A stretch of 64,000 nt of DNA, from the NCBI GenBank assembly GCA_021201755.1, contig JAJQEI010000050.1:56110-120109 (forward strand), in the 5' to 3' direction. Shown here piece after piece: positions 2,088-50,094 of this stretch. Each line of letters opens with the position of its first letter. The stretch's first letter is position 1. Source of the stretch: Ruminococcus sp. (GTDB taxonomy: Bacteria; Bacillota; Clostridia; Oscillospirales; Ruminococcaceae). Both the position numbers and the translations under genes were made by a program. Under the pieces are notes generated by a model. The model worked only from the letters and a program-made list of their open reading frames with translations, had not been told where the DNA came from and searched no databases.

Positions 2088-2771
2088 ATGTATATTTTTT
2101 ATGGTGGATATGGCTTATTGATTTTAGGACTAATTATTAGTTTGCTGGCATCTTGGAATGTCAAGGCAACATTCAATCGCTATAAAGATAAGTACAATAG
2201 TCGTGGTATAACGACGGTACAAGTAGCTAGACAGATCTTAGATGATAATGGACTATATCATATCACCATAGAACGTGTTTCAGGAAATCTGACTGATCAC
2301 TTTGACTCTAAAGCCAACGTGTTACGCTTATCTGATTCTACTTATGATTCTGCATCTGTTGCTGCGATTGGTGTTGCAGCGCATGAATGTGGTCATGCAG
2401 TACAGTATGCGCAAGCATATGGACCTATTAAGTTGCGCAGTATCATTATTCCAGTTTCTCAGTTTGGTTCTAAATCATGGTATATTGTATTTTTAATTGG
2501 GCTACTTCTCAGTGGATCTTACATTGGAGAAGTACTCCAGCTAGTAGGGATTTTCTTGTTTTGTTTGATTATCCTGTTTCAATTGATAACACTTCCGGTA
2601 GAGTTCAATGCCAGTCACAGAGCAATGCAAACATTGGAATCTCGATATATTTTAGTTGATGAAGAATTGGTTAGTGCAAAAAAGGTTTTGACTGCAGCAG
2701 CACTGACTTATGTTGCCGCCTTGGTAAATAGTATATTGCAGCTGATACGGTTGCTAAATCGCCGAAGATGA
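2088..2771 (+). CDS. YugP-like membrane zinc metallopeptidase
   Basis: AAHECGHAVQ (HExxH), LTDHFD, TLPVEFNASHRA, AAALTYVAA, plus hydrophobic segments. Confidence 0.9.
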   Translation: MYIFYGGYGLLILGLIISLLASWNVKATFNRYKDKYNSRGITTVQVARQILDDNGLYHITIERVSGNLTDHFDSKANVLRLSDSTYDSASVAAIGVAAHECGHAVQYAQAYGPIKLRSIIIPVSQFGSKSWYIVFLIGLLLSGSYIGEVLQLVGIFLFCLIILFQLITLPVEFNASHRAMQTLESRYILVDEELVSAKKVLTAAALTYVAALVNSILQLIRLLNRRR

Positions 2772-3440
2772 ACGGCAAAAAATTATCCATACAGCTTTTG
2801 AACCAAACGGAACAGGAACAATGTTATTCAAATCTGCTGCTTGATCATGCACTGTTTCATTCCGATTTGGATGAACATGAAAAACGCCTTTGCGCATTGC
2901 TGTATTATGGCGTCATAGAAAGACGAATTACGTTAGATACTGTAATTATGCATTATAGCAATAAGCCAATTTCTAAAATAGATCGAACAGTTCGAAACGT
3001 TTTACGTTTAGGGATCTATCAACTTTTATATTGTGAACAGATTCCGGCAAGAGCTGCCGTAAATGAGTGCGTTTCGCTGACTAGATCATTTCATAAAGCA
3101 AGTGCTTCTGGTTTTGTCAATGCAATTTTACGAAGTTTTCTTCGGGACGATTGTAAAATTCCTTATCCAAAAGAAAAAGATGCTGCAATGGCAGTGGAAT
3201 ATGTCGTCCCCATATGGCTGCGGTATTTTACAATATTCTACTTGTACAATTTTACCGGAAGAAAACGAAAAAGTAGTACAATGTTTTTTGGAAAAGCATC
3301 CGGAATTTCAGTTGGAACCAATTGCACCGAGATTTGGCAACTTATTTTGCAGTACGATGTTGACACTTTTGCCAGAGCAATTTTACAGCGATGGATTCTT
3401 TTTATCTAAATTTCGTCGAAAAAACATGATGAAAACATAA
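2768..3440 (+). pseudogene. rsmB: 16S rRNA m5C967 methyltransferase RsmB/Sun with a large internal deletion and frameshift
   Basis: The NusB-like N-domain (LYYGVIERRITLD, VLRLGIYQL, FVNAILR) is joined at about 3215-3224 directly to the C-terminal GILQYSTCTILPEENE...DGFFLSKF in another frame. The SAM-binding core is absent. Confidence 0.9.
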
Positions 3441-3488
3441 AGTATGTAAGTAAGAAATGCTCTTTCGCACTTTTGATGGAGGACATTT

Positions 3489-4532
3489 ATGGAAAAAAAA
3501 GATATTCTTTCTATGCCATATAACCAATTAGAAGAAGAAATATATTTGCTTGGAGAGCCGAAATTCCGAACAAAACAGATTTATACTTGGCTACATCAAA
3601 AACAAACGACTGATTTTTCAAAAATGTCTTCACTTTCTCTCCAATTGCGAGAACGTTTAGATAGAATTTTTTGTATAAATAGACTAAAAATCACAAGAAA
3701 GCTTGCATCTTCTATTGATCATACGGTAAAATACTTATATGAACTTCCAGACGGCAATTATGTAGAAACCGTTTTGATGGAATACCATTACGGAAAAAGC
3801 CTTTGCATATCGACACAAGTAGGCTGTAAAATGAGGTGTCAATTTTGTGCGTCTACAGTTGCCGGATTCATTCGCAATTTGACACCTTCAGAAATGCTGC
3901 TACAGATATACGAAACACAGCGAGATATTGGTACCAGAATTGATCATCTTGTGTTAATGGGAATTGGTGAGCCATTAGATAATTTAGAAAATGTTTTGAC
4001 GTTTTTTCAACTGCTATCGGATCCCAAAGGATTCGGTATGAGTTTGCGTCACGTAACACTTTCTACGTGTGGCTTGGTACCACAAATCAAACAACTTGCC
4101 GATTTGCATCTTGGCTTGACACTATCACTTTCGTTACACAGCCCTGAGAATCTCCGCCGTAGTGAAATTATGCCAGTCAATCGACGCTATCCAATTGAAG
4201 CGACTATGGAGGCTTGTCGCTATTATTTCCAAGTGACTGGTAGACGAGTAACGATAGAATATGCAGTGATAGATCATGTAAATTGTTCCAAATTAGATGC
4301 AAAAAAATTGGCAGCTTTACTTAAGGATATGTATTGTCATGTAAATTTAATCCCTGTCAATCCAATTGCAGAGAAAAATTTTCAAACGATGCGTCAAAAT
4401 GTAGAGCTATTTCAAAAAGAATTGGAGACACTCGGCGTAAACGCAACTATACGCAGAACGTTGGGCAGCGATATTCAAGCTGCTTGTGGGCAATTGCGAC
4501 GAGATGCGTATCAAAATATCAAAGAAATATAG
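3489..4532 (+). CDS. rlmN: Dual-specificity rRNA/tRNA methyltransferase RlmN (radical SAM)
   Basis: CISTQVGCKMRCQFCAS, MGIGEPLDN, DIQAACGQL. Confidence 0.96.
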   Translation: MEKKDILSMPYNQLEEEIYLLGEPKFRTKQIYTWLHQKQTTDFSKMSSLSLQLRERLDRIFCINRLKITRKLASSIDHTVKYLYELPDGNYVETVLMEYHYGKSLCISTQVGCKMRCQFCASTVAGFIRNLTPSEMLLQIYETQRDIGTRIDHLVLMGIGEPLDNLENVLTFFQLLSDPKGFGMSLRHVTLSTCGLVPQIKQLADLHLGLTLSLSLHSPENLRRSEIMPVNRRYPIEATMEACRYYFQVTGRRVTIEYAVIDHVNCSKLDAKKLAALLKDMYCHVNLIPVNPIAEKNFQTMRQNVELFQKELETLGVNATIRRTLGSDIQAACGQLRRDAYQNIKEI

Positions 4533-4557
4533 ACTTATTCCATGGAGGTGGTAGAGA

Positions 4558-5295
4558 TTGGTGAGTGCATCGCAAACACATATTGGGTACGTACGAGATG
4601 AAAATCAAGATTGTGTGGACACAAGGCAATTTGGAAAAAATCAATTGCTGTTGGTTTGCGACGGTATGGGTGGGGAGCGATCCGGCAAAAAAGCGAGTAC
4701 AATGGCATCAAAAATTTTTTTCGAGCATTTTATAGAAGGATATTCTGAAGATATGGATGCTTACAGCGTGCGCTCTTTGTTGCTATCGTCTATTTCCGCT
4801 GCAAATTCTGTTGTGTATATAACCGCTCGAATGGATTATCAAAATTTTGGTATGGGTACAACATGCGTAACAGCTTTTGTAACAGAGTCCTATATCGCTG
4901 TCGCTAATGTAGGAGACAGTCGGGCGTATCTGATGGAAAATGGAAAATTGCGACAGATTACAAAAGATCACACTGTTGTAAATATGCTGCTGGAGCGTGG
5001 TCGAATTACAGAAAAAGAAGTGCGAACGCATCCACAACGTCATATGCTGATAAAAGCGGTAGGCGTAGAGAGAACTGTTTGTCCGGATTTCTTTCGAATT
5101 GATCTGGAGGAGCATCAACCGTTTCGATTACTTCTTTGCTCTGATGGATTGTCTGGTTTTTGTACGGATGCCGAAATAGCCACAATCCTGAGCGGTACGT
5201 TTTCTGCAGAAGAATTGACGGAACAACTAATTCAGGCGGCATTACAAAAAGGTGGAAACGATAACATTTCTGTTGCAGTAGTAACAGCATCATAA
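4558..5295 (+). CDS. stp: PP2C Ser/Thr phosphatase (Stp1/PrpC)
   Basis: ENQD, VCDGMGG, NVGDSRAY, LLCSDGL, GGNDNISV; upstream of the kinase. Confidence 0.94.
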   Translation: MVSASQTHIGYVRDENQDCVDTRQFGKNQLLLVCDGMGGERSGKKASTMASKIFFEHFIEGYSEDMDAYSVRSLLLSSISAANSVVYITARMDYQNFGMGTTCVTAFVTESYIAVANVGDSRAYLMENGKLRQITKDHTVVNMLLERGRITEKEVRTHPQRHMLIKAVGVERTVCPDFFRIDLEEHQPFRLLLCSDGLSGFCTDAEIATILSGTFSAEELTEQLIQAALQKGGNDNISVAVVTAS

Positions 5296-5312
5296 TTGGA
5301 GGAACTGTAGGA

Positions 5313-49265: not shown

Positions 49266-49294
49266 TTGACTTTCTATAATTCACATGATATAAT
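49266..49294 (+). promoter_or_regulatory. Plus-strand SigA promoter inside the nrdD leader
   Basis: TTGACT-17-TATAAT with extended TG. Confidence 0.65.
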
Positions 49295-49357
49295 AATAAG
49301 CAGTGTCCTGCCTTATAACATAAATATCGGATTCACCGCATCCAAAAGCGGAATAAC

Positions 49358-49405
49358 CTACTATATCTAGTATGTCTAAGATGATATGCATACTACATCT
49401 TGTGG
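49358..49405. promoter_or_regulatory. Tandem NrdR boxes
   Basis: Cores CTATATCTAG (49361-49370) and CTACATCTTG (49393-49402) match CwAtATaTwG. Spacing is 32 bp, immediately downstream of the nrdD -10. Confidence 0.85.
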
Positions 49406-49414
49406 TTCAATGAT

Positions 49415-49443
49415 ATTATATCATCATTCCCTGTAAAAGTCAA
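49415..49443 (-). promoter_or_regulatory. SigA promoter of nrdDG
   Basis: TTGACT-17-TATAAT on the minus strand. Confidence 0.8.
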
Positions 49444-49593
49444 GCAATTTTTTTAAAACTATGATTTCAAATATCTCAGTCATCTGATTTCGATAAATTA
49501 TGATGTCCGTCTTTTAAAATATAAAGAAATCAACCATACTGACAATACAAACTGCTAAAACCTCTGATCTTTTTCACTGAAAGGACGTATATT

Positions 49594-50094
49594 ATGAAAA
49601 AATTTCTCCCAATTCAAACACCCGAACAAATTCAAATTCTAGCGAATCTTGCAAGCGAAATTTGGCATGAATATTTTCCTTGCATCCTCCCATCGGAACA
49701 AATTGATTACATGATAAACAAGTTTCAATCTTTCTCCGCACTTACTGAACAAATTGTATCAGGATATTAATATCAGATATTATACATCAACGAAAATCCT
49801 GTTGGTTATTTCGGCGTTTGTTTACAGAAAGACGGCAGTTTATTTCTTTCGAAATTATATCTTAAAAAAGAATTTCGTGGAAAAGGTCTTGCACGAATAG
49901 AATTTAATGCTGTACTACAAATTGCCAAAACACAAAAAGCTCCGATTGTTTGGTTAACAGTCAATAAGCATAATATGCAAGCCATTGCAATCTATAAACA
50001 TTTTGGTATGAATTGCATTCGTTCTCAGATTACAAATATTGGAAATGGCTTTTTCATGGACGATTATGTCTTTTCACTCATACTCGAAAAATAA
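49594..50094 (+). pseudogene. GNAT acetyltransferase with an in-frame nonsense codon (absent from the ORF track)
   Basis: Hand translation: MKKFLP...LASEIWHEYF...QIDYM...VSGY*YQIL...LSKLYLKKEFRGKG...WLTVNKHN..AIAIYKHFG...IGNGFFMDDYV; TAA at 49768-49770; RBS aaagga. Confidence 0.9.

Follow-up and report, generated by a model that had tools for sequence, protein, structure and literature searches.

The 64,000-nucleotide stretch of Ruminococcus DNA analysed here (the window) corresponds to G000:C38:56110-120109, where G000 denotes the draft genome of this Ruminococcus species. Taken as a whole, the data are best explained by a species that is probably at an early stage of genome erosion, in which gene inactivation is species-wide and the window is a fair sample. 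Specifically, eight of the approximately 58 genes in the window are broken, in agreement with a genome-wide value of about 11% among conserved genes. In the mechanism that we propose, strong G:C>A:T mutational pressure, to which the loss of Nth-dependent repair of damaged cytosines may contribute, would convert CAA, CAG, CGA and TGG codons to stop codons, and selection would purge these stops only where a gene is still needed. After sporulation had been switched off, with spo0A likely the first gene hit, the whole regulon would have become neutral and would now be decaying. Dispensable accessory genes, including those for dockerin-bearing carbohydrate-active enzymes (CAZymes), transporters, comEC, recQ, a restriction enzyme and prophage genes, would be decaying alongside it.

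The G000 assembly comprises 2.37 Mb in 53 contigs with N-gaps, has a G+C content of 42.4%, and carries CheckM-type scores of 97.9/2.8. Its named relatives are 'Ruminococcus sp.' metagenome-assembled genomes from human gut and rumen sources, and the closest species genomes in the comparison set share only 84-87% identity in UvrA. Sequences of the species itself occur in over 50 blocks of the collection searched. As both control and reference we used the complete genome of a congener, G002 (3.23 Mb, 49% GC), of which 2.4 Mb was included. All open reading frames (ORFs) of at least 80 amino acids were compared by reciprocal tblastn between the two genomes, with the best frame kept for each locus. 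A lesion was counted when a stop codon is flanked by conserved alignment, or when the frame changes between adjacent collinear high-scoring segment pairs (HSPs). A first-pass figure of 35% broken genes was discarded because it was inflated by antisense 'shadow' ORFs of the GC-rich reference, such as a 619-amino-acid ORF opposite DUF711.

The corrected scan identified 133 broken genes among 988 conserved genes in G000, compared to 13 of 1069 in G002. After application of a codon-usage (coding-potential) filter, these values become 96 of 884 (10.9%) and 3 of 994 (0.3%) by the same method. Large deletions of the type found in rsmB are outside the lesion count, and the G000 value is therefore a lower bound. 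The filtered G000 lesions consist of 98 stops and 39 frameshifts, with one lesion in 65 of the broken genes, two in 22, three in eight and four in a single gene. The broken fraction is 24% for genes with less than 50% identity to G002, 7.7% for those with 80-90% identity, and zero for the 59 genes above 90% identity. Stops are located at a median position of 46% of gene length, and 2 of the 98 fall in the last tenth. Runs of six or more bases coincide with 21 of the 39 frameshift junctions, compared to 10% of random control windows. The GC content of G000 contigs ranges from 36 to 48% (approximately 46% for C24, C32, C46 and C47, and 38-40% for C38, C51 and C39), which is a wider spread than expected for one genome. 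In the first-pass scan, the broken-gene fraction was similar on high- and low-GC contigs.

The inactivated genes span many functions. In addition to the sporulation genes described below, family searches conducted with the G002 orthologs identify nth, recQ, comEC, a ClpB/C-like ATPase, uridine phosphorylase, a PutP-like symporter, Amt, PdxT, IorA, a TetM-like GTPase, GH43 and an MBOAT protein as broken. Others were identified by eye only, and include dockerin pectate lyases, GH3, HsdR, MetE, PstS, SpoIIM, SpoIIIAF and prophage genes. The gene for PdxT contains two stops, that for the Amt ammonium transporter is frameshifted, and genes of the pst phosphate-uptake system are broken (G000 C49:22428-22982; C38:11284-12520, in contig coordinates and outside the window; C16:331740-334376). 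Judging from their annotations, the damaged PdxT, Amt, pst and MetE genes suggest possible new dependencies on vitamin B6, methionine, and nitrogen or phosphate uptake.

The lesions are also found in other assemblies of the species. The same lesions are present in separate Logan assemblies of at least eight runs, and in at least three data series overall. One Logan contig is 100% identical to window positions 1-13409 and carries the same ABC-transporter and HI0933 gene fragments. A sister strain cluster is represented by contigs from approximately ten Joint Genome Institute (JGI) metagenomes (33000178xx series) and from SRR7496470 and SRR7496275. These contigs, which were recovered by anchoring on NrdG, an ACT protein and HPr, are 99.3-99.6% identical to G000.

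A reading of the window made previously from its sequence alone (the sequence-only reading) had listed eight broken genes. Three-frame translation and family searches reveal that every one is damaged at the place described, and the reported tally of in-frame stops (four TAA, two TAG and one TGA) is exact. These eight genes and a block of core genes next to them are as follows, in window coordinates.

2768-3440, plus strand: rsmB remnant, with a NusB-like N-terminus (213-amino-acid ORF at 2768-3409) fused out of frame to a C-terminal tail.
8997-9727, minus strand: ABC-transporter ATPase pseudogene, with frameshifted fragments and a damaged N-terminus.
11243-12428, minus strand: HI0933-like flavoprotein pseudogene, with TGA at 12419, TAA at 11858 and a 4-bp duplication near 11540.
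17446-19059, minus strand: FAD-dependent protein (PF21688), with a premature TAG at 19011 (codon 17).
28167-29000, minus strand: Spo0A-like paralog pseudogene, with TAA at 28787 and TAA at 28370.
43371-44562, plus strand: lipase/esterase-like alpha/beta-hydrolase pseudogene, with TAG at 43623 and a frameshift.
45600-46390, minus strand: lipoprotein gene, with a frameshift that leaves a lipobox signal-peptide fragment and a C-terminal fragment in another frame.
49594-50094, plus strand: GNAT acetyltransferase gene, with an in-frame TAA at 49768 (codon 59).
50167-58909, minus strand: core genes gpmI, tpiA, pgk, uvrA and uvrB, open and full-length with 84-93% identity to G002 and no stops or frameshifts.

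The rsmB remnant has lost its methyltransferase core and retains the last ~70 residues, such that G000 covers 51% of the 432-amino-acid G002 ortholog in two HSPs. Its 213-amino-acid product is identical in six Logan contigs from five runs, and PF01029 (NusB) is the sole domain. In the ABC ATPase pseudogene, the Walker A segment lies in one frame and the signature/Walker B segment in another, and Pfam ABC_tran positions 106-137, at the C-terminal end of the profile, map to 9464-9727. A further 228 bp and 168 bp are absent from the strains of the JGI cluster, indicating that this pseudogene is shrinking by deletion in the sister strains. Between it and an adjacent Xer-type recombinase gene (10248-11240), the JGI-cluster strains differ from G000 by a 23-bp insertion at window position 10211.

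The HI0933-like fragments match PF03486 and PF22780, and the G002 ortholog is intact at 438 amino acids. JGI strain L172 has both stops as well. The 4-bp duplication is confined to G000, and 1-bp indels of their own occur in the JGI strains. The slippage duplication and the internal deletions reported previously for the window are thus upheld by comparison with the strain contigs. The gene for the FAD-dependent protein provides a direct view of a stop codon and its alternative allele. G000 encodes MIKLMNLSTPIGCTES*LLQ (the asterisk denotes the stop) where strain L172 encodes ...TESQLLQ, the difference being TAG versus CAG (Gln). The remaining ORF restarts at a TTG codon and yields 512 amino acids in G000-type strains, compared to 533-537 in the JGI strains.

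The lipase-like gene gives weak matches to the Pfam families DUF676, PGAP1 and Lipase_2, and its G002 ortholog encodes 455 amino acids. In the JGI-cluster strains this pseudogene has an extra 1-bp insertion at 43860 and is more fragmented (163, 85 and 84 amino acids). The two lipoprotein fragments, of 100 and 157 amino acids, are the same in all eight strain loci (JGI, SRR7496470 and SRR152213xx), and no Pfam family matches the 45600-46390 region. In the GNAT gene, the C-terminal fragment matches PF00583 (Acetyltransf_1) with 46.4 bits, and the 58-amino-acid N-terminal fragment is called in JGI and Logan strains alike. Two further loci suspected of being broken proved intact: the supposed 'FAD oxidoreductase' at 13890-15401 corresponds to the ACT protein and DapL, and 38542-40595 encodes DUF58 and MoxR proteins.

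As had been proposed, the essential genes of the window remain open. In addition to the block listed above, def, fmt, rlmN, pknB, suf, dapF/L, nrdDG and gatCAB are full-length relative to G002, and Pfam annotations of core genes on the strain contigs agree with their intact status. Two adjacent genes of the GDSL lipase/esterase family at 25266-27997 are likewise intact in all strains, and the second has a weak dockerin match. Some of the cellulosome-type repertoire is thus being kept even as other proteins with dockerins are decaying.

Several of the window lesions are common to G000 and the sister cluster, namely both HI0933 stops, the lipoprotein frameshift, the GNAT N-terminal fragment, and the 84-amino-acid lipase fragment, and therefore the same lipase stop. 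The sister cluster differs from G000 in having CAG at 19011, in lacking the 4-bp HI0933 duplication, and in carrying its own indels, insertion and deletions. There are also two private 1-bp insertions. One, in L162 (JGI 3300017895) at the equivalent of window position 40001, splits MoxR into 220 and 92 amino acids, and the other, in L157 (SRR15221322) at the equivalent of 40962, reduces a 461-amino-acid protein to 431. These two could be new lesions within the population or single-assembly errors. A combination of shared old lesions and private new ones is the pattern predicted by ongoing decay and is not one that assembly error produces. The lesions are real alleles of a real lineage.

Sporulation and germination genes are prominent among the casualties. 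At least 17 broken genes belong to these processes (about 19 of the 96 by a count made partly by eye). Families assigned from the G002 orthologs include SpoIVA, SigG, GPR, SpoVAD (three stops), SpoIVB, DpaB, SpoIID, SpoVS, SipL, a CwlD-like amidase (Amidase_3) and a DacB-like carboxypeptidase (Peptidase_S11). SpoIIIAE and YqfD are also broken but have family scores below cut-offs, as are a GerXA-like protein and a germination permease whose matches lie below curated cut-offs. A CotJC-like manganese catalase is broken as well. The gene for SpoVAD had initially been taken for a mutY homolog with three stops, an assignment that was rejected. In these genes the lesions are mid-gene stops within well-conserved sequence that has ~81% identity to orthologs. 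For example, most good genomes of the genus have an intact SpoIVA, whereas an internal TAA interrupts it in G000, and look-ups of this stop returned only G000-type contigs. In another species of the genus, with a 1.9 Mb genome that is 99% complete, spoIVA is split into two frames (G013 C136:6232-7697), and a TAA occurs within the SpoIVA match of G004:C158:74880-76307. Sporulation decay may thus be recurrent in the genus.

A search of G000 for the Spo0A_C domain yields four copies, compared to one to five in relatives. The orthologous spo0A is located at C46:16021-16332, where Spo0A_C scores 145 bits, within the range of 144-157 bits for orthologs. This gene is damaged too, by a frameshift near its start: G000 reads ATG GAC AAA AAA TAA where G002 reads ATG GAC AAC AAA AAA ATA AAA GTC. 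One A is missing from the poly-A run at codons 4-5 in every strain examined. A frame of 253 codons remains, which lacks an ATG, GTG or TTG before approximately codon 34, beyond the acidic pocket of the receiver. The same frameshift recurs in Logan contigs from three runs, in SRR7496275, and in JGI 3300017877 (plus 17 places like it), and the adjoining spoIVB is split in all these contigs. Because the spo0A frameshift occurs in both clusters, the master regulator was hit before the clusters separated, and such an early hit fits a regulon that has turned neutral. On the evidence of these lesions, the sporulation programme is failing.

The damaged gene at 28167-29000 of the window had been taken for spo0A itself. 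It is indeed degenerate, but it is a paralog rather than the ortholog. Its Spo0A_C match of 108.8 bits, which contains one TAA and is split at profile positions 46/50, is below the ortholog range. No Response_reg match was obtained for this copy, its receiver domain is degenerate, and the phospho-acceptor Asp is replaced (VVIMGVTMP versus VVVIDAILP in the C46 ortholog). Another paralog (C11:1579-2479) is 73% identical to the window copy and has a stop at the same position (...LYPKIA*). This stop therefore seems to predate the duplication, unless the copies exchange sequence. Logan contigs from six runs all terminate at exactly 28439, inside the window pseudogene.

The substitutions that separate the strains are strongly biased. 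Over approximately 50 kb, the two clusters differ by 212 transitions and 11 transversions (~95% transitions), with ratios of 87:1, 77:4 and 48:6 in three regions. When nonsynonymous changes are polarised against the G002 protein, 28 of 31 are G:C>A:T, of which 17 fall on the branch to G000 and 11 on that to the sister cluster, and 2 of 31 are A:T>G:C. Codons for Gln, Trp and Arg are the only ones that a G:C>A:T change turns into a stop. Genome-wide, 86 of 147 stops align to these residues (38 to Gln, 25 to Trp and 23 to Arg), and with the CAG>TAG difference observed between strains this bears out an earlier proposal that the stops arose by C>T or G>A changes. The C>T changes have no methylation-motif context and exhibit only a preference for a purine at +1.

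The composition of the genome has shifted in the same direction. The GC content at third codon positions (GC3) is 0.413 in G000 and 0.625 in G002 across 267,000 aligned codons of intact orthologs. Amino acid replacements lean towards AT-rich codons, with 3422 GARP>FYMINK changes (from Gly, Ala, Arg or Pro to Phe, Tyr, Met, Ile, Asn or Lys) compared to 2250 in the reverse direction. The uvrA locus is 41.4% GC in G000 and 49.8-51.3% GC in the five nearest relatives.

A candidate contributor to this bias is nth, which encodes endonuclease III. An A6>A7 change in an A-run has shifted its frame, leaving pieces that score 135 and 82 bits. Of 19 further good genomes from the genus, 18 have an intact gene (225-240 bits), and G000 is the only one in which it is split. 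The same frameshift is present on two JGI contigs from the sister cluster, and the lesion thus predates the strain split. Loss of ung or of MGMT was considered as the cause and rejected, because ung and two MGMT-domain genes are open. From its sequence, the loss of nth plausibly contributes to the G:C>A:T spectrum. A stronger version of this idea, which we offer only tentatively, is that endonuclease III loss made a free-living gut Ruminococcus a constitutive, near-pure G:C>A:T mutator. This would have driven both the drift towards AT (GC3 from ~62% to 41%) and the death of genes by nonsense mutation, starting with the sporulation regulon after the poly-A frameshift in spo0A.

Several points weigh against a species-wide erosion driven in this way. 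The lesions checked in other assemblies number approximately 15 of the 96 or more, and assemblies rather than raw reads were compared. The control is a single genome, G002, with 26% of it left out. Broken genes are slightly more common within 1 kb of contig ends (9 of 96, compared to 24 of 788 intact genes). The genome is of ordinary size for a genus in which genomes at least 90% complete span 1.8-3.2 Mb, and greedy ORF coverage is barely below that of the control (88.9% versus 91.1% in G002). Polarisation by a GC-rich outgroup protein could favour the GC allele as ancestral. Intact genes differ between strains by 66 nonsynonymous and 53 synonymous changes, and a model with G:C>A:T changes only gives a ratio of nonsynonymous to synonymous rates (dN/dS) of ~0.45. 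Weak selection would account for such a value, but so would the delay with which purifying selection usually acts between very close strains. A second Nth-like domain protein of ~570 amino acids is intact and might compensate for nth. Finally, slippage on the A-run or translation from a non-canonical start might in principle restore Spo0A.

Erosion could also proceed with no special mutator. The universal AT bias of bacterial mutation would then be unmasked by relaxed or inefficient selection, possibly caused by a small effective population after the loss of spore transmission, or by less recombination after the loss of comEC and recQ, and the broken nth would be another casualty. This scheme accommodates pseudogenes in many unrelated functions, breakage of comEC and recQ themselves, the dN/dS value, and the intact second Nth-like protein, and Browne et al. 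(PMC8340488) tie sporulation loss to wider genome decay without mutators. However, the spectrum (212:11, and 28 of 31 changes G:C>A:T) is far beyond ordinary AT bias. Moreover, GC3 is 21 points lower than in a congener with ~84% UvrA identity, and nth is broken only in G000 among the 19 genomes of the genus having this gene, by a lesion older than the strain split. We therefore consider an erosion that lacks any mutator to be rather unlikely.

A hypermutator deficient in mismatch repair, with mutS or mutL inactivated by missense changes, could likewise generate dominant transitions and frequent homopolymer indels. Both genes are open and full-length (868 and 657 amino acids, with 74% and 70% identity to G002), and their ATPase motifs are present. 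Loss of mismatch repair raises A:T>G:C changes as much as, or more than, G:C>A:T changes, and the former make up only 2 of the 31 polarised changes. This origin is improbable.

Artefacts of assembly or sequencing, including consensus errors, chimeric binning and damaged DNA, deserve attention for a fragmented draft in which lesions were checked against assemblies, many frameshifts lie at homopolymers, and broken genes are in slight excess near contig ends. Yet identical lesions recur in Logan contigs from at least eight runs, and in JGI and SRR7496xxx contigs of a cluster that is 0.4-0.7% different. Furthermore, stops exceed frameshifts by 98 to 39, lesions avoid conserved genes, and the control treated in the same way yields 0.3%. 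An artefactual origin is thus very improbable. Read-through of the stops by codon reassignment or suppression, an idea that draws on the ~81% identity that several stop-bearing genes still have to their orthologs, can almost certainly be dismissed given that all three stops occur in frame (60 TGA, 54 TAG and 33 TAA), each aligned to several residues, that no in-frame stop is found in the 59 most conserved genes, that frameshifts and deletions accompany stops in the same genes, and that intact genes end at ordinary stops.

We therefore retain early, species-wide erosion as the probable explanation. The sequence-only reading, which had proposed selective and ongoing pseudogenisation, was right in kind. 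Independent assemblies reproduce the lesions, which avoid conserved genes rather than being spread equally over essential ones, and the broken fraction is ~30 times that of the congener instead of resembling that of an ordinary Ruminococcus. Its claim of early reductive evolution holds for gene inactivation and the AT shift, but not for genome size or coding density, which are not reduced. With a size that is normal for the genus, the genome is being eroded by gene inactivation and not yet by shrinkage, although deletions inside pseudogenes have begun. The host-restricted or bottlenecked lineage to which the sequence-only reading had likened the pattern is a hypothetical setting, on which the dN/dS value is ambiguous. 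Overlooked in that partly supported account were the collapse of the sporulation regulon and the near-pure G:C>A:T regime with a broken nth. In these respects, the finding is stronger than first stated.

Sporulation loss and genome reduction in gut Firmicutes are known from end states only, in which the genes are gone, whereas this Ruminococcus keeps the intermediate. This should allow the order of hits (spo0A, spoIVB and nth versus downstream genes), their pace, and the shares of mutation bias and relaxed selection to be reconstructed. If the link to nth is true, a culturable, non-symbiont test case would become available for the old view that genomes begin to drift towards AT and to lose genes when repair is lost. 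Similarly, if the mutator reading is true, the onset of reductive evolution could be followed in extant strains of a gut commensal instead of being inferred from old endosymbionts. There are practical consequences as well. Scoring by gene presence would misclassify the species as a spore-former and overstate its fibre-degrading repertoire, and automated annotation will split or mis-start approximately one in ten of its genes.

The closest known parallel is provided by the Former-Spore-Formers among gut Firmicutes (Browne et al. 2021, Genome Biol 22:204, PMC8340488), in which genes are absent, genomes are on average 36% smaller, and CAZymes are fewer. The text of that paper does not contain the word pseudogene, and the former spore-formers described there retain spo0A. 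As in those organisms, the present case concerns a gut clostridial lineage, from a family in which spore-formers are listed there alongside former spore-formers. The losses affect sporulation genes from many stages, along with a wider set of accessory and CAZyme genes (dockerin pectate lyases, GH3 and GH43 in Ruminococcus). Unlike in those organisms, the genes remain in place, with ~81% identity to intact orthologs and one to three lesions each, the genome has not shrunk, and spo0A itself is hit. The state of this Ruminococcus looks like a transitional stage toward a former spore-former.

Pseudogene-rich genomes are typical of recently niche-restricted bacteria such as Mycobacterium leprae, Sodalis glossinidius, Salmonella Typhi, Streptococcus thermophilus and Lactobacillus delbrueckii subsp. 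bulgaricus. The likeness to genomes of the M. leprae and Sodalis type lies in many recent inactivations, an intact core, nonsense changes together with homopolymer frameshifts, and strain-specific extra lesions. On present evidence the likeness does not extend to host restriction, intracellular life or a dairy-like niche. The Ruminococcus genome differs in its unusually pure G:C>A:T spectrum and in a load of 11% that applies to conserved genes only.

Two further comparisons concern the mutational process. Mutants of E. coli and mycobacteria that lack nth (with nei) accumulate C>T transitions, and repair-gene loss occurs early in endosymbiont evolution. With such base excision repair mutators G000 shares an inactivated nth, substitutions that are nearly all G:C>A:T, and a composition drifting to AT. 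It differs in that the second Nth-like protein, ung and MGMT are intact, and in being a free-living gut anaerobe rather than an endosymbiont. Poly(A)-tract frameshifts in endosymbiont genes, reportedly described by Tamas and colleagues in 2008, are said to be partly rescued by transcriptional slippage. The lesions in spo0A and nth, and about half of all frameshifts, similarly lie at A/T runs of 6-8 bases. However, the A6 run of spo0A is shorter than tracts that slip efficiently, and rescue in this Ruminococcus would be hypothetical. Across all of these systems, the process in this Ruminococcus is of a known kind, caught unusually early.

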